64,000 nt of DNA from an uncultured Gemmataceae bacterium (GTDB lineage: Bacteria > Planctomycetota > Planctomycetia > Gemmatales > Gemmataceae): positions 32,001 to 96,000 of the forward strand of contig CAVVPN010000004.1 in NCBI GenBank assembly GCA_963750165.1, read 5' to 3'. Made by a program: the position numbers and the translations under genes. Of the stretch, positions 48,662-62,702 are shown in pieces; within the stretch, counting starts at the first letter, position 1; every line of letters begins with the position of its first letter. Under the pieces are notes generated by a model. The model had not been told where the DNA came from and ran no database searches. It was given only the letters and a program-made list of their open reading frames with translations.

Positions 48662-50035
48662 CTACCCGGGGCGCTGCTGCGGCGGCGGCGCCGGCGGCTG
48701 CTCCAACCGCACCAGCGTCCACTGCTGCGTGCGGTCGGTGCCGAAATGCACGAGCATGTTCGTCTGCGGCTGCGTCAGGTTGCCGATGCCCGTCTCGTAC
48801 ACCACGTCCTTGCGGTCGCCGATGATCCAGGCGGCCCGCTGCGTCTTCGGATCAACGCTGCCAAACACCGGCAATGAGGTGTCGCTCAGGGCGTTGTAGT
48901 AGTTGCCGCGGAGGACGCCGTTCGCGTTGATCGCCAGCTGGAAGATGTGCGTGGCCTCCTTCTCGTCGCTCTGGATGGCGCCGAAGACGCCCAGCGGCTC
49001 CCACGGCCCGTTGTCCGGCGCCGGTGCCTGCACGCCCTGCTGCGCCAGGGCGGCGGCCTGCTGGGCGTACTGGTCGGCGGTGGTGATCGGGGCGCCGTTG
49101 TAATATACGTTGTTGCCCTGATACACAAGGGTGCCGCCGTAGTCGTAATAGATGGGCACCACCGGGAAGCGGCAGAAGTTCACCAGCCGGTTCCAGTTCA
49201 CGAAGTTCCAGTAGGCCAGCGGGCTCCAGCCGAACGGCCGCCAGGCGCGCGGGTGAGCAGTGTACCACGTCGGCGAGAAGTAGTGGTAGTGCGCGAAGTT
49301 TCGGCGGACGTAGTTGGCGCGATTGTACAGCGCGTAGTTGTTGACGAAGGTGGTGTGGTGACCGACCGCGACCGGCCGGGCGATCGGGTAGTGGACACCG
49401 TGGTAGGGCCCGACGGTGACCCGCGGCGTGATCACGACATGGCTGCCCGGCCCCACTACCGCGGGCGGCCTCGGCGTGACCACGGGGCGCGGCGTGACCA
49501 CCGGCCGCGGTGTGACCACCGGCCGCGGTGTGACCACCGGCCGCGGTGTGACCACGGGGCGCGGCGTGACCACCGGCCGCGGCCCCGGCCCCACGACTGT
49601 GACCGGGCGGTGGACCGCGACGCCGCCGCCGTGGGGGCCGACCACGACGCCGCGGCGCTGGTGAACGACCGGGTGATGGACCACGACGCTGTGGCTCTCG
49701 TGAACGACTGGGTGGTGGACCACGACGTTGTGGCTCTGGTGAACAACCGGGCGGTGGACCGCGACGCCGCCGTGGGGGCCGACCACGACGCTGTGGCTCT
49801 GGTGAACGACCGGGTGATGGACCGCGACGCTGTGGCTCTGGTGAACGACCGGGTGATGGACCGCGACGCTGTGGCTCTGGTGAACGACCGGGTGATGGAC
49901 CGCGACGCCGCCGTGGGGGCCGACCACGACGCTGTGGGCCGGGCGGTGGACCACGCGCTGACCGCGCAGTTCCGCGTCCGCCGCGAAGAACGCCGCCGCC
50001 AGCAGCCCCGCCACCACGAGTAAGCGCTTGCTCAT
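48662..50035 (-). CDS. Secreted protein with His/Val-rich and TPRPVV repeats and a conserved planctomycete C-terminal domain
   Basis: Signal MSKRLLVVAGLLAAAF; WEPLGVF...FQLAINANGVLRGNY...TQRAAW...YETGIGNLT. Confidence 0.8.
   Translation of the reverse strand: MSKRLLVVAGLLAAAFFAADAELRGQRVVHRPAHSVVVGPHGGVAVHHPVVHQSHSVAVHHPVVHQSHSVAVHHPVVHQSHSVVVGPHGGVAVHRPVVHQSHNVVVHHPVVHESHSVVVHHPVVHQRRGVVVGPHGGGVAVHRPVTVVGPGPRPVVTPRPVVTPRPVVTPRPVVTPRPVVTPRPVVTPRPPAVVGPGSHVVITPRVTVGPYHGVHYPIARPVAVGHHTTFVNNYALYNRANYVRRNFAHYHYFSPTWYTAHPRAWRPFGWSPLAYWNFVNWNRLVNFCRFPVVPIYYDYGGTLVYQGNNVYYNGAPITTADQYAQQAAALAQQGVQAPAPDNGPWEPLGVFGAIQSDEKEATHIFQLAINANGVLRGNYYNALSDTSLPVFGSVDPKTQRAAWIIGDRKDVVYETGIGNLTQPQTNMLVHFGTDRTQQWTLVRLEQPPAPPPQQRPG
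49474..49955 (-). repeat. Intragenic tandem repeats: 18-bp (TPRPVV) and 39-bp (HHPVVHQSHSVAV) units
   Basis: Directly visible in both DNA and translation. Confidence 0.9.
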
Positions 50036-50060
50036 AGATTCCTCCGTTGGGGTTGGGGCT

Positions 50061-50977
50061 TCATTTGACGCGGGTGACCTTGACGGGCGCGATGTTCGGC
50101 AACTCCTCGCCATCGGAGGTGCGGTCGATGGACTGCCAGGTGAAGCTGTCGCGGTCGAGTGGGATCAGCAGGTTCGTGGCCTTGATCTCGGTGCCGTCGG
50201 CGTGGACGCCCGTGGCCTCCTGCGTCCAGCGTTTGCCGTCCCAGGTCCAGACTGCCTCGCCGAAACCGCCCTCGCTGTCAAACACCCACGAGCGCACCTG
50301 GCCGGTGCGCGGATCGCGGCCAATGCGCTGCGTGCCGGAGACGCTGTGGTCGGGGCCCTTGACGGTGAACTGCGCGATGAGGAATTTCTTGGGCTCGTCC
50401 CACGCATAGGTGGTCTTGACCTCCGTGTCCTTGTTTTTGGCGACCCAGCTGCCGACCAGCCAGTTCAGGTCGTTCAGGGAGTGCGGTTCGGTGGGCCAGT
50501 CGCGCAGCACCGCGATCAGCCATTTGCCGTTCTCGCGGACGTGCAGGATGCTGTACTTGCCGGAGGTGATAAAGTCTTTTTTGCCCTGGACGCGGGCATG
50601 ACCCTCCTCGATGGCACTGTCCTTGCTGACGAAGCGCACGGAGTCGGTGGTCATCTCGACCCGCAGACCGGGCGTTTTGGCGAAGTGGTCCTTGTAGGCG
50701 GCCTCGATGGCGGCGCGGCCGCGGATGGTGGCGCCGTTGTCGGCGATGTACTCGCCCTCCGCGGTCCACAGGGCGGCCAGCTTTTTGGCGTTGCTCTTCT
50801 CGACGGCGGCAGCGAACGCCTGCGTGGACTTGACGATGGCTTCACGGTCGGCCTTGCGCTCCTGTTCCTGGGCGCCGGCGCGGCCGTCGGGGGCGTCGGT
50901 TGCGGCAGGGCGCTCCAGCCAGCGGCCAGCAGGCCGACCAGCGCCACCACTGCCCACCTTGAACCTCGGGTGTTCAT
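50061..50977 (-). CDS. SgcJ/EcaC-like (DUF4440/SnoaL, NTF2-fold) secreted protein; frameshift near 50870
   Basis: Signal MNTRGSRWAVVALVGLL; LAALWTAEGEY...GRAAIE...GKWLI; LNWLVGSW; RSWVFDSEGGFG. Confidence 0.8.
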
Positions 50978-51492: not shown

Positions 51493-51727
51493 GATGCCTC
51501 CTGGGTTTGGATGGGGGAAGGGCCGCCCCTGGGGTGTGAGACAGGAACGATACCCGCGGTGACGATACGGATGGGATAGCGGGAACGGGGCGCTTTTCAA
51601 GGAGGAAAACGCCGCTGGCGGTGGGCACCGCTTGCCCGCGCCGGCCGGGGCGTATAATGGGACACCTTCGTGGCACGGCTCTGGAGAGCCGTGCCACGAA
51701 AAACCAAACCCACAGAGAGTCGCTCGC

Positions 51728-53509
51728 ATGGCCCACAGTTCGCGCCCCGAAACCGTCACCCTGGCGCAGGCCCGGGAAATCCTCCGCTGCATGGCCGACC
51801 AGCACAGCATCCTGTTGCTGTCCGGGCCGGGCGTCGGCAAGTCGGACATCGTTTACCAGGCGGCCGCCGATGCCGGGCTGCCGTGTCGCTCCCTCGTCGG
51901 CACGCAGATCGCACCGGAGGACGTGAGCGGCATTCCGCGCATCATCGGCGAGCGCTCGGTCTTCTGCCCGCCGCGCGTCCTGCTACCGGAGCAGCCCGAG
52001 CCGTTCTGCCTGTTCCTCGACGAACTGCCCGCCTGCACGCCGGACGTGCAGAAGGCGTTCTATTCGCTGCTGCTGGAGCGCCGCCTCGGTGAGCACCCGC
52101 TGCCGCCGGGCACCTGGGTGGTGGCCGCCGGCAACCGCGTCGAGGATCGCTCGCTGGTGCGTGCCCTGAGCAGCGCCCTGGTCAACCGCGTCATCGTCCT
52201 GCAAATCCGCGTCGATGTGGAGGAGTGGCTGGCCTGGGCGCGCGGCCAGAAACTGCGGCCGGAGGTCATCGACTTCATCGCGGCGAATCCGCAGCTGCTG
52301 CACCGGCCCGTGCCGGATCGGCCCGCACCGTTCTCGACGCCGCGGGCCTGGGCGTCGCTAGCGCAGGCGCTGGACCTGATGGAAGCGGCCGGTCATTTGA
52401 CGCCCGCCATCCGCCTCGCCCTGGCGGTCGGGCGCGTCAGCGCGCCGGACGCCGCGGCGTTCTGCCGATCCGCCGAGGTCAAGGACGCCGCCCAGGTCAC
52501 CATCAGTTTGGGCCAGGCGAAAGCGCTGTTGAAAGCGCTGGCCCACCAGCAGAGTTTGCTGTTGCAGGCGCCGCCCGGCGTCGGCAAGACCGCCATCGTG
52601 GCCCAGGCGGCGGCGGACGCGGCGCTGCCGTGCCGCTCACTGCTGGGCACGCAGATCGCGCCGGAGGACGTGAGCGGCATCCCGCGCATCGTCGGTGAGC
52701 GGTCCGTCTTCTGCCCGCCGCGCGTCCTGCTGCCCGAGCAGCCCGAACCGTTCTGCCTGTTCCTCGACGAACTGCCCGCCTGCAGCGCCGACGTGCAGAA
52801 GGCGTTTTATCCGCTGCTGCTGGAGCGGCGGCTGGGCGAGCACGCGCTGCCGGCCGGCAGCTGGGTGGTGGCGGCCGGCAACCGCGTCGAGGACCGGGCG
52901 CTGGTGCGCGACCTCAGCGCCGCGCTGGTGAACCGGCTGTTCCTGCTGCAAATCCGCGTGGACACCGACGAGTGGTTCCACTGGGCCGAGGCGGAGGGGC
53001 TGCGCCGCGAAGTGGTGCTGTACCTGCGGCACATGCCCGAGGCGCTGCTGCGGCCAGTGCCAGCCGAGCCGGTGCCGTTCTCGACGCCGCGCGCCTGGGC
53101 CATGCTCGCCCACGCCCTCGACCTGGCGGAGCGCGGCGGTATCCTGACGCGCGCGGTCCGCCGCGCCCTGGCGTTTGGCCGCGTCTCGCCGGAGGACGCC
53201 GCCATGTTCTGCGCCATGACCGAGACGCCCATCGCCGACCTGCGCCTGGCCGAGCACTACGTCGAGCACCCCGAAGAGCTGCCGGCCGCCGAGACGCCGC
53301 GGCTGTTCATCCTGGGTCGCATTCGCCGCCTGGCGGAGACGGGCAAGCTGAACGGCCACGCGCCGGCGGTGCTCAACCGCTTCCTGCGCGCGCTGTCGCA
53401 GGAGCACCGCTTGACCATGCTGGTGGACCAGGTGCCGCTGTGGGGCGCCCTCGGCGCCGACGATGCCATGCTGGAGACATTGTGGGAAGTCACGGGGGTG
53501 AAGCCATGA
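51728..53509 (+). CDS. MoxR-type AAA+ ATPase with two tandem AAA domains
   Basis: Each half has Walker A (GPGVGKS / PPGVGKT), CLFLDE, AAGNR, ALVNR and FSTPRAW. Confidence 0.88.
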   Translation: MAHSSRPETVTLAQAREILRCMADQHSILLLSGPGVGKSDIVYQAAADAGLPCRSLVGTQIAPEDVSGIPRIIGERSVFCPPRVLLPEQPEPFCLFLDELPACTPDVQKAFYSLLLERRLGEHPLPPGTWVVAAGNRVEDRSLVRALSSALVNRVIVLQIRVDVEEWLAWARGQKLRPEVIDFIAANPQLLHRPVPDRPAPFSTPRAWASLAQALDLMEAAGHLTPAIRLALAVGRVSAPDAAAFCRSAEVKDAAQVTISLGQAKALLKALAHQQSLLLQAPPGVGKTAIVAQAAADAALPCRSLLGTQIAPEDVSGIPRIVGERSVFCPPRVLLPEQPEPFCLFLDELPACSADVQKAFYPLLLERRLGEHALPAGSWVVAAGNRVEDRALVRDLSAALVNRLFLLQIRVDTDEWFHWAEAEGLRREVVLYLRHMPEALLRPVPAEPVPFSTPRAWAMLAHALDLAERGGILTRAVRRALAFGRVSPEDAAMFCAMTETPIADLRLAEHYVEHPEELPAAETPRLFILGRIRRLAETGKLNGHAPAVLNRFLRALSQEHRLTMLVDQVPLWGALGADDAMLETLWEVTGVKP

Positions 53510-54744
53510 AGACCGACGCCGATCAGGCATTGCTTGAGAAAATCCAGGAGGGCTTCCGCCGGGTGGGGCTGACGTTCCCGTACCTGCAGGGGCTGATCGA
53601 GATTGTGCGCGCGCGTGTGCAACTGGATCGGCGCATCGAGACGATGGGCATCTTCGCGTCGGGCCGGTTGCTGGTGAACCCGGATTTCGCGGCGGCGCTG
53701 TCGGCGCGCGACCTGGTGTTTGTGCTGACGCACGAGCTGTTCCACCTGACGCTGCGGACGCACGAGCGCGGCGCGGGCACCGACCTGCGGGCGTTCAATC
53801 ACGCCCACGATTACATCATCAACGACCTGCTCCGCGAGGAGCTGCAATACGACCAGGTGCCGGCCGGCGGCCTGGACTGGCCGGGGGCGCGGCTGAAGTC
53901 GGCGGAGCAGATTTTGGGCGAGATGGAGCGCGAGCCGTGGCGGCAGTCGCAGGCGGCGGGGGGCGGCTGGTTCGTCGAGGGCCAGGGCGGCGACGGCCCG
54001 ACCCTCGACGCGCCGGGCGACGTGCTGGACGCCGCGACGGAGAGCCAGTTGTTCCCGAGCGACGCGCCGGGGGCGCGACAGGAAGCCACGCGCGCCGTGG
54101 AGGAGCAGGCGGCGCGGGCCACGGCGCTGCAGGCGCTGATGGATTCGATGCGCGGCCACGGGCGCGGCACCGAGGCGGGCGGTCAGCAAGATGCGGTCGA
54201 GGCGCTGCGCGGCCTGTACCGGCCGCCGTGGGAGCTGGCGCTGCAGCGCTGGCTGGAGTCGGTGGCGCCGGGCGCGCGCAGTTATGCGCGGCCGTCGCGG
54301 CGCGGCGCTGACCGCAGGGACGTGGTGCTACCCGGCCACAAGCGCGAGGGCTGGACGCTGCACGTCGTGCTCGACACCAGCGGTTCGATGGTCGAGGAGT
54401 TGCCGCGTGCCCTGGGCGCCATCGCCGACTTCTGTGAGGCGATGGGCGTCGAGCAGGTCCACCTGATCCAGTGCGACACGGAAGTCGGCAGCGATGAGGT
54501 GCTGGCGCCGGCGGAGCTGGCGCGCTGGCAGGTGACCGGCTACGGTGGCAGCAACCTCAGTCCCGCACTGCTGCGGTTGGCCGAGGACCGTGAGGTCGGC
54601 GCCGCCATTGTGCTGACGGACGGCGACATTGAGTATCCCGAGGAGCCGATGCCGTACAGCGTGCTCTGGGTGCTGCCGGCGTGGAAGCGGCCGGAGGAGT
54701 TTACGCCGCGCTACGGCAAGGTCATCGGCATGACGCACGGATAG
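53506..54744 (+). CDS. DUF2201-type putative metallopeptidase plus vWA domain protein
   Basis: HELFH (HEXXH), FNHAHDYIIN, SYARPSRR, MIDAS DTSGS, LTDG; ATGA overlap with the ATPase. Confidence 0.88.
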   Translation: MKTDADQALLEKIQEGFRRVGLTFPYLQGLIEIVRARVQLDRRIETMGIFASGRLLVNPDFAAALSARDLVFVLTHELFHLTLRTHERGAGTDLRAFNHAHDYIINDLLREELQYDQVPAGGLDWPGARLKSAEQILGEMEREPWRQSQAAGGGWFVEGQGGDGPTLDAPGDVLDAATESQLFPSDAPGARQEATRAVEEQAARATALQALMDSMRGHGRGTEAGGQQDAVEALRGLYRPPWELALQRWLESVAPGARSYARPSRRGADRRDVVLPGHKREGWTLHVVLDTSGSMVEELPRALGAIADFCEAMGVEQVHLIQCDTEVGSDEVLAPAELARWQVTGYGGSNLSPALLRLAEDREVGAAIVLTDGDIEYPEEPMPYSVLWVLPAWKRPEEFTPRYGKVIGMTHG

Positions 54745-54867: not shown

Positions 54868-56686
54868 TTATTTTTCCGCCGACCACAACTTCACCGTCCT
54901 GTCCGCGCCCCCTGACGCCAGGGTGCGGCCGTCGCTGCTGAAGGCCACGCAGTGGACCACCCCCTTGTGCCCGGCGAGCGCCGCCAGCTGCTTGCCCGCA
55001 GCCACGTCCCACAGCCGTACTGTGCCGTCGTCGCCGGCGCTCGCCAGTACCTTGCCGGCCGGGTCCACCGCCAACATCCGCACCGGCCCCTTGTGCCCCT
55101 TCAGGGCCGCCCGTTCCTTGCCGGTGGCCGCGTCCCACAATTTCACCAGCCCATCCTTGTCCGCCGACGCCAGCGTCTTGCCGTCCGGCGTCAAGGCCAC
55201 CGCCAGCACCTCCGCCGCGTGGCCGCCGCGGAATTTCTCTTTTTCCTTGCCGCGCTCCCACAGCCGCACCGTCTTGTCGGCGCTGCCCGTCGCCAGCACC
55301 TGCTCGTCCGCGGAGAACGCCAGCGCGTGGATCACCCCCGTGTGGCCTTTGTAAACCTCGTTGGCACGGTTGGGCACCTCCCGGCCTTTCAGGGGACGCT
55401 CGATCAGGTGCAGCACGTGGTCCTTCGCGACGCCCGCCCAGACCTGGGGATCCTGCAGGACTGCCAGCAGTTGAAGTCCCTTGCCGCTGCCGCCGTTGCC
55501 CACATTTTTCGCCAGCTTGTAGAGCGCCAGGTTGAACACGTCTCCCCGTTGCCAGCCGACGCCCAGGTAGCGATCCTGGTCGCGCAGGGCCACCACACGA
55601 ATCACGCCGCGCTGCATCTTGCCGAAGAGGGTCCGTTCTTCCTTGCCGGCTCTGGCGTCCCACACCTTGACGACACCGTCCTGATCGCCGCTCGCCAGGA
55701 TTTTTTCCCCGAACGTCAGCACCTGTACGGCCTCCTGGTGTCCCTGGAGGGTGGCGCGTTCCTTCCACACCGGCGCCGGCTGCACGACAGGGGCCGCCGC
55801 GGCCGGCAGGATCACCGCGACCGGCGGCTTCTCCGCCCGTGCCGGCTGCGCCCGGGACGACACCCACAGGCCACACGCCAGCGCCGCCAGCAGTCCCAGC
55901 GCCGCCGCCAATTTGAGCTTGGTTAGCCACATGATTCGTATCACCCCTTCCGCCAGGGCAGCGACCTCCGCCGAGACCGCCGCGCTCCCCGTGTCCACCG
56001 CCGCCCGTGCCGTTGCCGCGGCCAGCGCCGCCGGCACCGCCGCCCCCGCGTGCCCCGCCAGCAGTCCCCCCAGGAGCCCGCCCGACACCGCCAGGCCGTG
56101 CTGCCGCAACCGTTCCGCCAGCAGCTTGCGGCCCGCGGCCAACCGGCTCGACAGCGTGCCCTCCGGCACCGCCAGCTGCCGCGCCGCCTCCTTGCGCGGC
56201 CGGCCCTCCAGGTCGCACAGCACCAGGGCGGTGCGGTACTTGTCCGGCAACCGGGCCAGCTCGGCGTCGAGCAGCGGTTGCAGGTCGCTCCAGAGGTCCG
56301 CCGCAGCGCGGGCCGAGTCGTGCGTCTCCCTCATGGTCTGCTCGTGAGTCCGCCGTCGGGCGTTCCGCTTGCGCGCCTCCAGGGCGGTGCGCCGGGCCAC
56401 GCCGTACAGCCAGTTGCCGACCTGTTCGCGCGGCCGCACCGCCGCCGCCCTGCGCCAGCACCAGGAATGTTGCCTGAAACGCATCCTCCGCGTCGTGGGC
56501 GTGGCCGACGATGCGACGACAGACGCCGAGTACCATCGGCCCATGGCGCCGCACCAGGGCCGCGAACGCCCCCTCATCGCGCCGGCGGACGAACGCCTCC
56601 AGCAGATCGCCGTCGGCGGCCGCGTCCCCACAGAGCGCGGCGCCGCACAGGTCCTGGATCACCCGTGTCAGGGAATGGGTCGCCAT
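54868..56686 (-). CDS. ECF sigma factor with TM helix and C-terminal WD40 repeats; frameshift near 56450
   Basis: [12 protein letters not shown]...[29 protein letters not shown]...[28 protein letters not shown]...WD repeats. Confidence 0.88.
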
Positions 56687-56803
56687 CGCGTTCGCTCCGG
56701 GGGCCGGCCGTGCTTCTGCCTTCTATTGGTCGGAAACCCGGCGGCGCGTCGGTGGGTGCGGGAATTTTATCGATTTGTTCCGCCAGCGGCGGAAGCGGGG
56801 AGA

Positions 56804-59480
56804 TCAGTCAGCCGCGTCGGGTAGCTCGCGCAGCCAGCTCAGCCGATAGCCCGCGGGCAGCACCTTGGCGGCCGCGGCCGCGCAGGCGGCGCGGGCGGCG
56901 GCCGCCGACACACCGGGGGCGAGGTTGGCGGTCACTGTCGCCATCGGCTCACCGTTGAAGCGCTGCACGACCATGGGGCAGGTGTACTCGCGGATGCTCG
57001 CCACGGCGCGAAGCGGCAACAATTTACCCTTGTTGGTGCGGACCTGGAGCGACTCGAGCCGCTCGGCACCCTGGCGAACCTCCTTCTTCACGCTCACGTT
57101 GATCTGCCAGGTGCGGCCGAACTTGTTGAAGTCGTTGATGTAGAAGGAGCCAAAGACGGCCTGCAGTGGCTTGATGACCTCGTCCATCGAGACGCCCAGG
57201 CTCTTCAGCTTTTCCGGGTCGATGGCCAACATCAGGTTTGGGGCCTCGCGGTCGCCGGGGCCGCAGCCCACGTCGGTCAACTGTTTGCTTTCGGTCAGCA
57301 GGGCGGCGAGCTGCTGCGCCAGTTCGTTTACGCGCTGCTCGTCGGGGCCGTGGACGGCCAGGGCGACGGCGTACCCTTCCTGCGACAGCTGGCCGGGTCG
57401 CGCCGGGTCGCCGACCCGCACCAGCGCTTCGGGAAGCTCGCGGCCGAGCAGCTGGCGGAGGGCGACCGCCACGCCGGCGCGGCCGCCCTCCGCCAGCTCC
57501 AGTCCCACCAGCACGCACCCCTGGTTGGAGCCGGGCGCCGCCGGCGGCCCGGACAGTTCCAGCACGTCGCACACCTCGTCCACGCGGGCCAGCAGCCGCG
57601 CGCACTTTTCCAGGGCTGATTGCGTGCGCTCCAGCGAGGCGTCGTCCGGCAGCCGCACGTCCAGCCGCAAATAGCCAGGCGCGGCGCCCCCGCCAGAGGC
57701 GTCAAAGCGCACAGCCAGGTGGACGCCCTTGGGCAGCTTTTCCCGGAGCTGCGCCAGCCGGGACCGCACCGCGGCGCTGACCGCGGCCGGCTGAGCCGTT
57801 GCCACGGGGGCGACGCCGAGGACGACCGCGGCCTGGCCGTTGCAGCGGGCCTTCCCCGCCGACGCGGTCGGGCCGCGCTCGATTGTGCCCACGTCCCGGA
57901 TACGGACCTGCCTGCCTTCCGGGTTGGTCTTCAGGGGGATGTTCTCGAGTTCGGCCGTGGTTTGTAGCGGGCTCGTCGTGTTCAGGGTGAAATCGAACCC
58001 CTGGCCGGCGGGGACCGGCGGTTGGCCGAGTTGGCCCGCAGCAGCCTGGGCCCCGTACTCCTGCACCACCAGCAGGACCTCCTGCACGGTGAGGTTCAAC
58101 GCCTGCAGCAGGTCCGGGTCCAGGTGGACGCGCACCGCCTGGTCGGGCGCGCCGAATAGCTGCACATCGCCGACGCCCGGCAGGCGCGTCAGGTCGCCGC
58201 GCACCATCTTGTTCGCGACCTCGCTGAGGGCGCGCGCGTCCTGCCGGCCGTCCGAGGTCAGCACGACGAACAGCAGCACGTCGCCGGCCTTCGGGCGGAC
58301 GATCAACCCGCCCTTCCAGACCGCCTCGGGCAGGACCGGCTGCAACAGCGTGACGCGGTTCTGCACCCGCACCTGGGCCTGCTGGGGGTCCGTGCCGGCC
58401 GCGAACGTGACGGTCAGGGCGTAATTGCCGGCGTGGTCGCACTGCGAGGTCATGTGCGTCATGCCCTCGACGCCGTGGACCTGCTTCTCGATGTGGGCGC
58501 CGACGGTGTCGGCGACGACCCGGGCGTTGGCGCCGGGGTAGGCCGCCTTCACGACGATGACGGGGCCGAAACCGGGCTGGACCGCGGCAGGCTGCGTGGG
58601 GCCTGGTTCCGGCGTCGGGTCGCCGAGGAGCGGCGGCACCACCGCGGCCGCGGCCGCGCCCAGCAGGCAAATGGCCAGCAGCGCCAGCGCGGGCAGCCGC
58701 AGCCGCGCCAGCAGTAGCCGCCGCAGCGCTCCCTGCACCATGGCCGCCACGGGCGCCGTCACGGCCTGGCCCGCGCCGGCCGGCAGCGCCGCCTGGAGGA
58801 TCGCCTGGACGAGCGCGGCCGGCACCGGCGCCAGGGCCGGGGCGGCGGGCAGCCCACCGACGGCCGCGGGCGCCAGCGTGACGCCGCGCCGGCTCAGCCG
58901 CCCGCGGAGCAACTGTTTGGCCCGCGCCAGCCGGCCCGAGAGTGTGCCCTTGCTCCAGCCCAGCAGTTGCGCCGCCTCCTCGTTGGTCTTGTGCTCCAGG
59001 AAGCAGTACACGAGCGGATCGCGGTACTTCTTCGGCAGCCGCTCCAGCTCCTCGTCGAGGACCGCGCAGGTCGCGCCGGGCTGCTTCCTCGGCGGGGTCG
59101 GCCGGCGGCGTCCCGGCGACGCGCTGCTCCCGGGCGCGTCGCCGGGCGGCACTGGCCCGCTCCTTGAGGGCGATGTGGGTCGCCACTTCGTGCAGCCAGC
59201 CGGCCACGGACATCCTGCCGTCCAGGGTACCGCCCTTGCGTGCCAGCACCAGGAACGTGGCCTGGCAGGCGTCCTCGGCGTCGTGGGCGTTGCCCAGGAC
59301 GCGCCGGCAGACGCCAAGCACCAGCGGGCCGTGCCGGTCCAGCAGCTGTTCAAAGGCGGCCTGGTCGTGCCGGGTGGCGTAGCTCCGCAGCAGCTGGCCG
59401 TCGGTCGCATGGCCGGCGACGGGCGTCCCGGTCAGCCGGCGGCAGTAGTCCACCACGTTATGCAATGGCTCGTTACTCAT
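56804..59480 (-). CDS. ECF sigma factor / TM / AcrB periplasmic-domain fusion, paralogue A; frameshift near 59065
   Basis: Sigma region 2 in ORF 57702..59480; region 4 and AcrB-like YPGANARVVADTV...VQNRV...LPGVGDV...NDFNKFGRTWQ...QRFNG in ORF 56804..59410. Confidence 0.85.
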
Positions 59481-59649
59481 GGCTCCCTACCTCCAGGGTT
59501 CGGCGCCGACGATACTGTCGCTTCCAACCGACCGTCACTTTACATCCACGCGCAGCAAACGCCGGCGACGTCTCGGCTGGTCCCTCCCTTCGCCGGCGTT
59601 CCCTCCCAGCTGGATCGTCGCCCGGTTGTGATGCACGGCCAGGCCGCCG

Positions 59650-62313
59650 CTACTCCGCCGTGGGCAGGTCGTGCAGCCAGTTCAGCCGATAGCCTGTGGG
59701 CAGGACCTCCGCGGCCAGGGCTTCGCACAGGGCGCGGGCAGCGGCCGGCGACACGCCGGGGGCGAGGTTGGCGGTCACCGTCGCCATCGGCGCGCCATTG
59801 AAGCGCTGCACGACCACGGGGCAGGTGTGCTCGCGGATGCTCGCCACGGCGCTGAGCGGGACCCATTCTTTCTTGTCATTGCGGACGAAAAGATTATCCA
59901 GGTCTTTGGGGAGACGGCGTCCCGCCGCGTAGACCTGATAGATGTGGCCGATCCTGACAAAACCCTGTTCCTCGGAGGAGCCTATGGTGATCTGCAGCGC
60001 GTCGAGGACCTTGTTTATCGAGAGGCCGTGGCGCTTCACCTTTTCCTCATCGATGTCCAGTCTAAAGACTGGGTTTTCGGTGTCGCCGGGGCCCCAACCC
60101 ACGTCCGTCAACTGTTCGCTCTTGTTCAATCGGTTGGCGAGTTTCTGCGCCAGGTCGCGCACTTGCCGCTCGTCGGGGCCGTGGACACCCAGGACGACGG
60201 CGTAGCCTTCCTGCGACAACTGGCCGGGTCGCGCCGGGTCGCCGACCCGCACCTGGGCCTCGGAGAACTCGCGGCCGAACAGGTTGCGGATGGCCGCCAC
60301 GCCGGCGCGGCCGCCCAGCGCCGGCCCCAGGCCCACCAGCACACACCCCTGGTTGGTGCGGCTCGCGACGGGCGGGCCGCACAATTCCAGCACGTCACGC
60401 ACTCCCTTGACGCCAGCCAGCCGCTGTACGCACTTTCCCAGGACCGTCTGCGTGTATTCAAGCGTGGCGCCTTCCGGCAGCCGCACGTCCAGCCGCAGGT
60501 AGCCAGGCTCAGAGTCGCTACTTGAAGCGTCAAAGATTACCTCCAGGCGGACGCCCTCGGGCAGCTTTTTCCGAAGCTGCGCCAGCCTGGATCGTACCTC
60601 GGCGCCGACCTCGGTCGGCCGGGCGCTCGCCAGGGGGGCGACGCCGAGGACGACCGCGGCCTTGCCGTTGTAGCGGGGCAGGCCCGCCGCCGCGGTCGGG
60701 CCGGTCTCGATTCTGCCCACGTCCTTCAACCGGATCAACTCGCCTTCCGGGTTGGTCCTCACGGGGATGTTCTCGAGTTCGGCCGCGGTTTGCGGCCGGC
60801 CCTTCCTGATCAGCGTCAAGACATTCTCCAAGCTTTGGCTTTTGACGCCCGTGGCCTGGCCGAGGCGCCCGGGCGAACCGATCACACTCTGTTCCGACAG
60901 TGCCTTCATGACGTCTTCGGAGGAGATTTTGTAGGCCCGCATACGGTCCGGGTTCAGCCAGACGCGCACCGCCTGGTCGGGCTCGCCAAACACCTGCACG
61001 TCGCCGACGCCCGGCAGGCGCGACAGTTCGTCGCGCACCCTCTTGTTCGTGACCTCGCTGAGGGCGAGCGCGTCTTGCCGGCCGTCCGAGGTCAGCACGA
61101 CGAACAGCAGCACGTCGCCGGCCTTCTGGCGGACGGTCACCCTGCCCTTCCAGACCGCTTCGGGCAGGACCGGTTGCAACAGGGCAACACGGTTCTGCAC
61201 CCGCACCAGGGCCTGCTCGGGGTCCGTGCCGGCTGTGAAGGTCACGGTCAACGTGTAGTTACCGGCGTTGTCGCACTGCGACGCCAGGTGCGTCAGGCCC
61301 TCGACGCCGCGGAGCTGCTGCTCGATGGGGACGGCGACGGTGTCGGCGACCACTCTGGAGTTGGCGCCGGGGTAGACCGCCTGCACGACGATGGCGGGGC
61401 CGAAGCCGGGCTGGACCGCGGCAGGCTGCACGGGGTTGTGCTCCGGCGCCGGGTCACCGAGGAGCGGCGGCACCACCACGGCGGCGGCGCCCAGCAGGCA
61501 CACGACCAGCAACACCAGCGCGGGCAACCGCAGCCGCGCCAGCAGCAGCCGCCGCAGCGCCCCCTGCACCAGCGCCGCCACGGGCGCCGACGCGGCCTGA
61601 CCCGCGCCGCCCGGCAGCACCGCCAGGGCGGTCGCCTGGACGAGCGCGGCCGGCACCGGCGCCAGCTCCGGGGTCGCGGGCAGCCCGCCGACGGCCGCCG
61701 GCGCCAGCGTGGCGCCGCGCCGGCTCAGCCGCCGGCGGAGCAACTCGCGGGCACGCGCCAGCCGGCCGGAGACTGTGCCCTTGCTCCAGCCCAGCAGCTG
61801 CGCCGCCTCCTCGTTGGTCTTGCCCTCCAGGTAGCAGTACACGAGCGGGTCCCGGTACTTCTCCGGCAGCCGCCCCAGCTCCTCGTCGAGGACCAGGCGC
61901 AGGTCGCGCCGCGCCGCTTCCTCGGCGGGATCGATCGGCGGCGTCCCGGTGACGCGCTGCTCCCGGAGGCGCCGCCGGGCGGCGCTGACCCGCGCCTTGC
62001 GGGCAATGTGATAGGCAACCGTGTACAGCCAGCCGGCCACGGACTTTTGGCCGTCGAGCGAACCGGCCTTGAACGCCAGCACCTGGAACGTGGCCTGGAA
62101 GGCGTCCTCGGCGTCGTGGGCGTTGCCCAGGACGCGGCGGCAGACGCCGAGCACCAGCGGGCCGTGCCGGCCCAGCAAAAGCTCGAAGGCGGCCTGGTCG
62201 TTCCGGGCGGCGAAGCTGTGCAGCAGCTGGCCGTCGGTGGCGTGGCCGGCCACGGGCGCGCCGGTCAGCCGGCGGCAGTAGTCCACCACGTTGTGCAATG
62301 GTTCGTTACTCAT
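59650..62313 (-). CDS. ECF sigma factor / TM / AcrB periplasmic-domain fusion, paralogue B (intact, 887 aa)
   Basis: One uninterrupted ORF: sigma2, sigma4, [21 protein letters not shown], AcrB loop 1, short linker, AcrB loop 2. Confidence 0.88.
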
Positions 62314-62393
62314 GGCTCCTTACCCCAAAGCTCAGCCGCCGGACCGCCCGCCGGCACTCACCCGAAACGACCCGGTCCGGGTTCAACCCCTGG

Positions 62394-62702
62394 TCACTTC
62401 CTCTGCCTGCTCCTCATTTCCTGACTGAAGGCGTTCAAAATTTCAAATTCTTTCGCCCGTCTTTCCGTGAACTCCTTCGCGGCTTGCTCCGCGGCTCTCC
62501 TCAGTTCCCGTTCGCTGACCCGCTGCATGCGCTTCTCCATCCTCTGGACTTCTTTCTCCGCCTCTCGTTTGCATTCGGCCTGGAAGTGATTCCAGTACCA
62601 GATACCTCCGATGATCAACACGAGCAAACCAACGCAGCCCAGAAGCCACTCAGGCACCTCTGGTTCGTTCTGACCCGGGTCTTTTTTCATCGTGTCGCTC
62701 AT
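62394..62702 (-). CDS. Small single-TM protein with charged helical tail
   Basis: WLLGCVGLLVLIIGGIWYW; GAGGGG RBS; ATGA overlap with the upstream gene. Confidence 0.6.
   Translation of the reverse strand: MSDTMKKDPGQNEPEVPEWLLGCVGLLVLIIGGIWYWNHFQAECKREAEKEVQRMEKRMQRVSERELRRAAEQAAKEFTERRAKEFEILNAFSQEMRSRQRK

Follow-up and report, generated by a model that had tools for sequence, protein, structure and literature searches.

What is the periplasmic part of an efflux pump doing at the end of a sigma factor? The question is raised by two adjacent genes (copies A and B) in a 64,000-nucleotide stretch of an uncultured Gemmataceae bacterium (the window; assembly GCA_963750165.1, contig CAVVPN010000004.1, positions 32,001 to 96,000). 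Both encode an extracytoplasmic function (ECF) sigma factor, followed by one transmembrane (TM) helix and by the joined periplasmic loops of a resistance-nodulation-division (RND) pump of the HAE1 type, referred to below as the head. The known part of this arrangement is the membrane-tethered design of the ECF57 sigma factors; what is apparently new is the use of natural RND heads as its tail and the undescribed family to which these heads belong. Our tentative answer is that the proteins are ECF57-type regulators in which the head, as a pump mimic, binds a membrane fusion protein (MFP) or pump protomers and gates the release of the sigma factor.

Copy B is a single intact open reading frame (ORF) of 887 amino acids, in which sigma region 2, sigma region 4, one helix and the two periplasmic loops, connected by a six-residue joint, follow one another (Table 1). 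Pfam assigned Sigma70_r2 and Sigma70_r4_2 to the sigma part and ACR_tran, as two stretches, to the head. In the Kyte-Doolittle profile, residues 263-281 were the sole segment above 1.8 (maximum 2.93), with two weaker windows at 1.54 and 1.58. Residues 294-595 and 599-880 corresponded to residues 30-331 and 573-866 of solved pumps, respectively, and because the alignment covers these two ranges only, copy B lacks TM2-7 and TM8-12. An initial annotation, made from the sequence by a reader without database searches, had described two paralogues with this domain order, the missing TM blocks and the linkers SSDSEP and GGGAAP, all of which were confirmed by the domain searches, hydropathy, alignment to solved pumps and the sequences of both copies. 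The stretch on the N-terminal side of the copy B helix is rich in arginine, and by the established positive-inside rule the sigma part should therefore be cytoplasmic.

The head has the porter (PN1, PN2, PC1 and PC2) and docking (DN and DC) domains in common with HAE1 transporters such as AcrB, MexB and OqxB. Unlike these pumps, it lacks TM2-12, and therefore the proton relay, belongs to no pump operon, and scores 370 versus 1250 bits, far below the NCBIfam cut-offs. In place of the 12 TM helices with proton-relay residues that define HAE1 proteins, copy B has its single helix, and neither of the genes with which HAE1 pumps are encoded, those for an MFP and an outer membrane factor (OMF), was found on the window's contig, in line with the initial observation that the window holds no MFP or TolC-like gene; OMF matches were confined to contigs C1 and C11. 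A split pump with a separate TM-only partner was ruled out, as no such gene was found in the genome and each match to TM2-7 or TM8-12 was part of a full pump gene. Transporter folds are reused for signalling in UhpC and, among RND relatives, in Patched, with the membrane domains kept; here, in contrast, the membrane domain is deleted and a transcription factor is part of the same chain.

For the head, a fold like that of the AcrB periplasmic part is predicted. Modelled alone from a 93-row alignment, it gave a pLDDT of 88.1 and a pTM of 0.87, and the model superposed on residues 38-869 of AcrD/AcrB with a Z score of 45.6 and an rmsd of 3.1 Å over 534 residues; confidence was lowest in the protruding loop, as would be expected of a monomer. 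The whole-protein prediction (18 rows; pLDDT 74.2) had as its top Foldseek match, at an rmsd of 11 Å, AcrBper, an engineered soluble protein in which the two periplasmic loops of AcrB are fused (PDB 5EN5 and 7B8R; PMC8617272). AcrBper contains the same loops with nearly the same cut points, and its 5EN5 and 7B8R chains align copy B residues 306-880 as a single stretch. Unlike AcrBper, the head is natural, membrane-anchored and sigma-fused, has remodelled pocket columns and shares 29% identity with it. In the ESM Atlas the head matched ACR_tran clusters only, and the matches in contig scans of metagenomes and genomes were apparently ordinary pumps.

The sigma part contains regions 2 and 4 without region 3, scores above the cut-off of TIGR02937, and has one cysteine in each region, as do all 12 sigma parts checked. 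Its C-terminal extension contains the one TM helix, and the hosts are planctomycetes: four of ten heads have NCBI names (three Gemmataceae and one Planctomycetota), and the sigma relatives are named Gemmataceae or Planctomycetes. The same arrangement of regions, the Cys pair and a long C-terminal extension that holds a TM helix are given for the planctomycete ECF57 sigma factors in the available part of the supplement of Casas-Pastor 2021 (PMC7826278), where activation via release from the membrane is also proposed. The tails described in that part are WD40-like or homeodomain-like, with no mention of an RND head, and have about two helices on average versus one here. IutY (ECF243) and the sigma-anti-sigma fusions of ECF48, ECF52 and ECF53 likewise tether the sigma factor by its own C-terminal TM extension, and release by regulated intramembrane proteolysis was shown for fused IutY (PMC8999054, in the sections available); their extensions are anti-sigma-like, whereas here the extension is a pump head and sigma cleavage is something that we only infer.

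The head is not confined to sigma factors. A profile of 18 heads, searched against a library clustered at 50% identity, retrieved among its best 150 matches 115 complete joined heads, which is therefore a lower bound, together with 19 partial heads, 11 full pumps and five other proteins. A tree of 169 rows built with FastTree (125 heads, 43 full pumps and P0016, a protein described below; partial heads left out) placed 124 of the 125 heads in one clade (support 95), with P0249 nested among the pumps. Named members come from Gemmataceae or Planctomycetota and are annotated in the database as efflux permeases. Joined heads occur in at least 20 of the 252 genomes searched from the family of the host (three candidates scored per genome, 467 matches unlisted), and none was found among 400 genomes sampled across the phylum (E 1e-125; three candidates scored per genome). 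Of the 99 complete heads that carry neither sigma factor nor MFP, 85 possess a hydrophobic leader, and a lipobox-like motif is present in 12. An MFP is fused to the head in 14 of the 24 odd-length members scanned, nine times behind the head and five times in front. At 20 loci in 19 other genomes, no head was sigma-fused, an MFP was fused or directly upstream in five cases, and no conserved neighbours besides MFPs were found. TM-less RND heads thus appear to constitute a wider and apparently undescribed protein family, with sigma fusion as one use of the module. As a correction to the initial interpretation, the TM blocks were not lost within the two genes themselves: the TM-less head is an older module, mostly sigma-less and repeatedly MFP-fused elsewhere. 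The MFP fusions also mean that a window without an MFP gene does not imply independence from MFPs. Another genome of the family contains two MFP-head genes in tandem (L156:7250-13115), and the heads of P0013, P0014, P0026 and P0125 have a three-helix leader, preceded in P0026 by a CxxC zinc-ribbon-like start.

A third gene of this genome, P0016 (C11:1472288-1475482, minus strand; L091:6288-9482), also joins a sigma factor to a head. Its sigma part is sister to that of an HAE1-head protein, and its head is of another TM-less family, which descends from pumps of the CzcA/CusA type. In this second family, 16 proteins were checked; none has more than two hydrophobic segments, all have the same kind of junction, and five are sigma-fused. 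Given this family, the idea that the P0016 head arose recently by deletion from a resident pump was abandoned. In five further proteins, sigma factors of other lineages are fused to a partial TM-less head from a third pump subfamily. From the separate HAE1, CzcA/CusA and third-subfamily cases it follows that membrane-domain loss and sigma fusion each happened more than once. For two HAE1-head sigma factors (P0010 and P0011) and one with a CzcA-type head (P0372), the longest contig listed is 45918 bases in each case, and the three may therefore be neighbours on a single metagenomic contig.

The full order of sigma factor, helix and joined head, with the same junction, was found in 10 proteins from other assemblies, and chance, random decay or misassembly is therefore rejected, the latter two having been argued against initially on the basis of the window. 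A search with the sigma part alone gave 7106 relatives among 8000 candidates. In a quick tree of 134 sigma parts (no bootstrap), the 11 intact HAE1-head sigmas and P0016 formed a pure clade of 12 (SH-aLRT 97), with 112 other-tailed proteins outside it; a smaller tree gave the head-bearing clade a support of 80. Mapping the sigma label onto the head tree takes eight changes, at least five of them forced, and both one sigma gain with several losses and an exchange of heads fit this pattern. P0129 starts with a sigma-like first peptide that runs directly into the helix, apparently a case of sigma loss.

These patterns bear on the possibility that the head is captured cargo, an ECF57 sigma-plus-helix cassette having taken the place of the leader in an already existing, secreted TM-less head. 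In that case the head would not control the sigma factor and would do the job of the sigma-less family, e.g. as a cap or positioning element for an MFP or as the gate of a passive MFP-OMF vent. The prevalence of sigma-less heads, mostly with a hydrophobic leader, the eight changes of label and P0129 are consistent with such a capture, as are the approximately 20 ECF57-like genes of this genome, in which the same cassette precedes unrelated tails (WD40, LRR, DUF1501 and cytochrome c peroxidase). ECF57-type tails are in general many and unrelated, with ACR_tran in 10 of the best 120 sigma relatives (including the first five), and fortuitous capture is the explanation offered for planctomycete ECF extensions by Pinto et al. 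(PMC7671368, section 12, among the parts available). However, an RND head has persisted in one sigma lineage through deep divergence, where it was exchanged for another RND head and for none of the many other tails, and TM-less heads were gained independently by two or more additional sigma lineages. We therefore consider capture a serious but rather unlikely explanation.

It was also considered that the heads are near-neutral debris, i.e. functionless products of recurrent pump-gene deletion carried on a mobile sigma cassette. Their distribution is patchy, this genome being the only sigma-fused one among the at least 20 of 252, terminal branches are long (median 0.58), several heads are partial (P0015 and P0198), and copy A is frameshifted. 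The ORF of copy A, on which the initial annotation had been silent in stating correctly that copy B is intact, starts at ATG 59480 and has two bases fewer than copy B between 59064 and 59063, so that sigma region 2 is cut off from region 4 onward. In a control in which proteins of related genomes were mapped onto the assembly, 9 of 76 genes (100.5 kb) were frameshifted, an earlier run over 17 loci only having found one, and sigma regions 2 and 4 lie in different frames in 5 of the approximately 20 ECF57-like genes. Such background frameshifts would hit a 2.7-kb gene about one time in five, and the deletion in copy A is therefore likely, if unproven, to be an assembly error. The control genes contain about one frameshift per 11 kb. 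The deletion lies in a CCTGG context, which fits long-read errors; we take this context to be tied to methylation motifs in such errors.

Between copies A and B, dN/dS (Nei-Gojobori, with values biased upward by high GC at third codon positions) was 0.39-0.68 for the sigma regions, 0.39-0.81 for the porter segments and 0.85 for the linker; for DN and DC, whose segments differ in origin between the two copies, it was about 1.2. The values of 0.39-0.81 across sigma and porter segments, the background frameshift rate, the single clade of 124 heads with a fixed junction, the family-specific invariant residues and the confidently predicted fold all argue against debris, a reading that is very improbable and already largely refuted. 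With 10 homologues sharing the fusion, the initial idea of a repurposed pump head holds to the extent that a transport-dead RND head on one helix, in a conserved fusion under purifying selection, makes a plausible one-component regulator.

The domains of the head have diverged unequally. Heads are closer to full pumps than to each other in PN1 (0.54 versus 0.51), DN (0.39 versus 0.36) and DC (0.35 versus 0.31), and closer to each other than to pumps in PN2, PC1 (0.36 versus 0.24) and PC2 (0.40 versus 0.21). In sliding windows of 30 columns over 124 heads, a full pump was the best match, beating every other head, in 175 of 944 windows in DN, 141 of 955 in DC, 77 of 989 in PN1, 69 of 1479 in PN2, 4 of 1105 in PC1 and 4 of 1115 in PC2, and all 15 strong pump-matching windows (from six proteins) lay within DN or DC. 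The clearest mosaic is copy B, in which two docking-domain segments are, judging from identity and base composition, imports from another pump subfamily. Its residues 466-485 are identical to the resident pump C11:1712906 at 18 of 20 positions and to copy A at 5 of 20; the matches in DC are weaker (11 of 20 versus 6 of 20 for copy A, and 9 of 20 versus 4 of 20). Identity of copy B to this pump and to copy A is 0.60 versus 0.45 in DN, 0.41 versus 0.41 in DC and 0.16-0.35 versus 0.69-0.76 in the porter subdomains, and the GC contents of the two imported segments are 0.60 and 0.55, compared with 0.70-0.76 elsewhere and 0.60 in the pump. A second paired match in DN and DC was found in P0127. The protruding loop lies within the imported segments, as do the residues that correspond, by mapping via the MexB alignment, to the tunnel that receives it; in AcrB the DN loop enters the DC of the neighbouring protomer and provides 46.9% of the inter-subunit interface, according to the available parts of PMC3230630 and PMC8277102. 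This loop has 33 residues in copy B and 31 in copy A, the pump median being 31.

Docking of MFPs takes place on DN and DC. In the pump-mimic reading that we tentatively prefer, the sigma factor would be tethered at the inner membrane, with sigma inside and the head in the periplasm. The head would have kept the MFP-binding surfaces and, in copies A and B, the loop-and-tunnel pair that links protomers. The state of its partner (head bound to a free MFP or a pump protomer, or unbound) would decide whether the sigma factor leaves the membrane for its putative target genes, most likely through proteolysis, by analogy with IutY and the release proposed for ECF57. Since the three head-bearing sigmas of this genome carry docking domains of three pump classes, each would report on a different class. 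The mimicry is supported by the MFP fusions (14 of 24 odd-length members, and five of 20 loci fused or directly upstream), by the concentration of pump-like windows in DN and DC with the paired matches of copy B and P0127, and by the large share of the AcrB loop in the interface. Further support comes from an orphan MFP that resembles the MFP of pump C11:1712906 (see below), from the RND heads on all 12 sigmas of one clade, one of them swapped to the CzcA/CusA type, and from the membrane release that has been proposed for ECF57 and demonstrated for IutY.

Several observations weigh against pump mimicry, in addition to the unrelated ECF57 tails and the proposed capture route. At 15 of the 20 loci no MFP is fused or directly upstream, and no full pump or OMF was found near any of the 20. 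The pump-likeness of DN and DC could partly be a matter of less remodelling on the family stem and not of ongoing selection. Pumps from other genomes match the DN segment of copy B better than the resident pump does (27 of 30), and sigma-less heads of five other genomes showed no preference for their own pumps, which ranked 1, 4, 4, 3 and 5 for DN and 6, 1, 6, 3 and 2 for DC, of 6, in pump sets that are incomplete; these genomes thus gave no support for the idea that heads in general co-evolve with pumps of the same genome. The trimer loop is full-length in 48 of 124 heads and in 6 of 12 sigma-fused ones, versus 38 of 39 pumps, and trimer formation is therefore not family-wide. No promoter shared by the sigma genes and the pump operons was found, the best bipartite 4-mer pair (4 of 9 regions) equalling the random mode, and two pump operons (L140 and L141) share a palindrome upstream of the MFP gene. 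It resembles a TetR operator. Finally, conservation within the family, set against that in pumps, is strongest in the subdomains PC1 and PC2 (ratios 0.84 and 0.90), as would suit a ligand site equally well, and their family-specific residues (Pro648 in 90%, Leu659 in 83%, Cys657 in 77% and Asp609 in 85%) could form a new one.

The last point leads to a small-molecule receptor, in which the porter domain would bind a periplasmic ligand (drug-like for the HAE1 type, a metal for the CzcA/CusA type) and a conformational change would trigger sigma release. Heads were recruited from both drug-type and metal-type pump families, and AcrBper, the top Foldseek match, crystallized as a trimer with a DARPin and binds doxycycline, fusidic acid and levofloxacin, as stated in the accessible sections of PMC8617272. 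However, the switch-loop glycine, present in 100% of 34 pumps, is kept in 27% of heads, with the next conserved serine changed to proline, and the aromatic residue equivalent to F628, present in 92% of pumps, is Leu, Val or Ile in 97% of heads (MexB alignment mapping). In copy B, the pocket columns F615, F617 and F628 are P, V and L, respectively, by the same alignment, although the parent planctomycete pumps also depart from AcrB at several of them. No clear co-occurrence indicative of disulfide pairing was found among the four family Cys columns (best p 0.046 of six pairs). A receptor would also leave the MFP fusions and docking-domain exchanges unexplained. The drug-binding role initially suggested is thus weakened by remodelling of the porter C-terminal subdomains and of the switch-loop and deep-pocket columns and by a docking domain that is pump-like and exchanged with pump genes, and we regard a receptor as unlikely.

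The orphan MFP lies 412 kb from any RND gene and is 63% identical to the MFP of pump C11:1712906. It is a secreted protein (C3:2664830; L252:6829-8283, plus strand) with an OEP-like helical hairpin N-terminal to the MFP part. The hairpin gave a weak PF02321 match, is 37% identical to the OEP-like hairpin that forms the tail of an ECF57-type sigma factor (L095, C12:905064-906515), and in the ESM Atlas fell among sub-0.9 hypothetical clusters; P0284 and P0303 have hairpin repeats. Since coiled coils can give such weak matches, the likeness is a lead only. An extension of the pump-mimic reading, which we hold to be distinctly unlikely as a whole, is that Gemmataceae possess a periplasmic signalling kit in which the tripartite pump is rebuilt without proton motor and outer-membrane barrel. 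TM-less RND heads, orphan MFPs and the OMF-like hairpin would be its parts, fused to one another and each also used as an ECF57 sigma tail; in this genome the kit would comprise the three sigma-head genes, a sigma-hairpin gene and the secreted hairpin-MFP, whose subtype matches the docking domain of copy B. Assembly would gather or release tethered sigmas, and docking-segment swaps with pump genes would reset specificity. Among the pump operons themselves, L090, L140 and L141 each consist of one MFP gene and two tandem HAE1 RND genes, and heteromeric pumps are therefore suggested; a low-GC MFP-RND-OMF operon (L138:5811-12857) encodes an RND protein with approximately 200 extra C-terminal residues after TM12.

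The features of the locus are listed in Table 1. No sigma70-type promoter was found in 56600-62700. Elsewhere in the window, genes for a double-AAA (MoxR-like) ATPase and then a DUF2201 metallopeptidase/vWA protein occupy 51632-54744 on the plus strand, and 48662-50113 on the minus strand encodes a secreted protein of 483 amino acids with His/Val-rich and Pro/Thr-rich repeats.

Table 1. Features of copies A and B and of the adjoining sigma gene (positions in the window; residues are those of copy B).
Feature	Position	Strand
Copy B, intact ECF57-type sigma, one TM helix, TM-less HAE1 RND head	59650..62313	-
Copy B sigma region 2, residues 47-112, conserved Cys58	61978..62175	-
Copy B sigma region 4, residues 141-192, conserved Cys160	61738..61893	-
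Copy B sole TM helix, residues 263-281, Arg-rich N-terminal side	61471..61527	-
Copy B first periplasmic loop (PN1, PN2, DN), residues 306-597, AcrB about 38-330	60523..61398	-
Copy B DN segment, residues about 451-495, with protruding trimer loop, probable import from other pump subfamily, low GC	60829..60963	-
Copy B six-residue linker in place of TM2-7	60505..60522	-
Copy B second periplasmic loop (PC1, PC2, DC), residues 604-880, AcrB about 567-869, stop before TM8	59674..60504	-
Copy B DC segment, residues about 746-820, same pump subfamily as DN segment, low GC	59854..60078	-
Copy A, paralogue of copy B, split by 2-nt deletion after codon 139	56804..59480	-
Copy A sigma region 2, first reading frame	59142..59345	-
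Copy A frameshift site, probably assembly error	59063..59064	-
Copy A sigma region 4, second reading frame	58907..59059	-
Copy A TM helix	58637..58693	-
Copy A first periplasmic loop, trimer loop full-length	57695..58564	-
Copy A six-residue linker in place of TM2-7	57677..57694	-
Copy A second periplasmic loop	56813..57676	-
Neighbour outside the system: third ECF57-type sigma, WD40 tail, frameshifted near 56455, directly downstream of copy A	54868..56686	-

The initial annotation knew of no functional description of such a fusion, and none of a natural TM-less RND head or a sigma-RND head fusion was found in the full-text literature searched, outside which most subscription papers lie. The available parts of PMC10269533 and PMC8277102 contain nothing on such fusions, and ACR_tran gave no matches in the accessible portions of the supplements of Pinto 2020 and Casas-Pastor 2021. 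The former (PMC7671368), as far as available, contains two ECFs from Fimbriiglobus that bear the annotation of RND periplasmic adaptor subunits, and fusions of such sigmas to pump parts are therefore already on record as annotations.

The RND periplasmic head thus emerges as a free-standing module that has been repeatedly reinvented, with at least two natural families (HAE1 and CzcA/CusA) mirroring the engineered construct. Because heads are annotated as ordinary efflux permeases, counts of resistance genes in planctomycetes are inflated. The large and untested ECF57 group gains a tail with well-understood structure, partners and ligands, and the question of whether ECF57 extensions control the sigma factor therefore becomes directly testable. 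Through the heads, the cell may be able to monitor the condition of its efflux machinery, and the pump-mimic reading, if true, would represent a new coupling of efflux-machine assembly to transcription.

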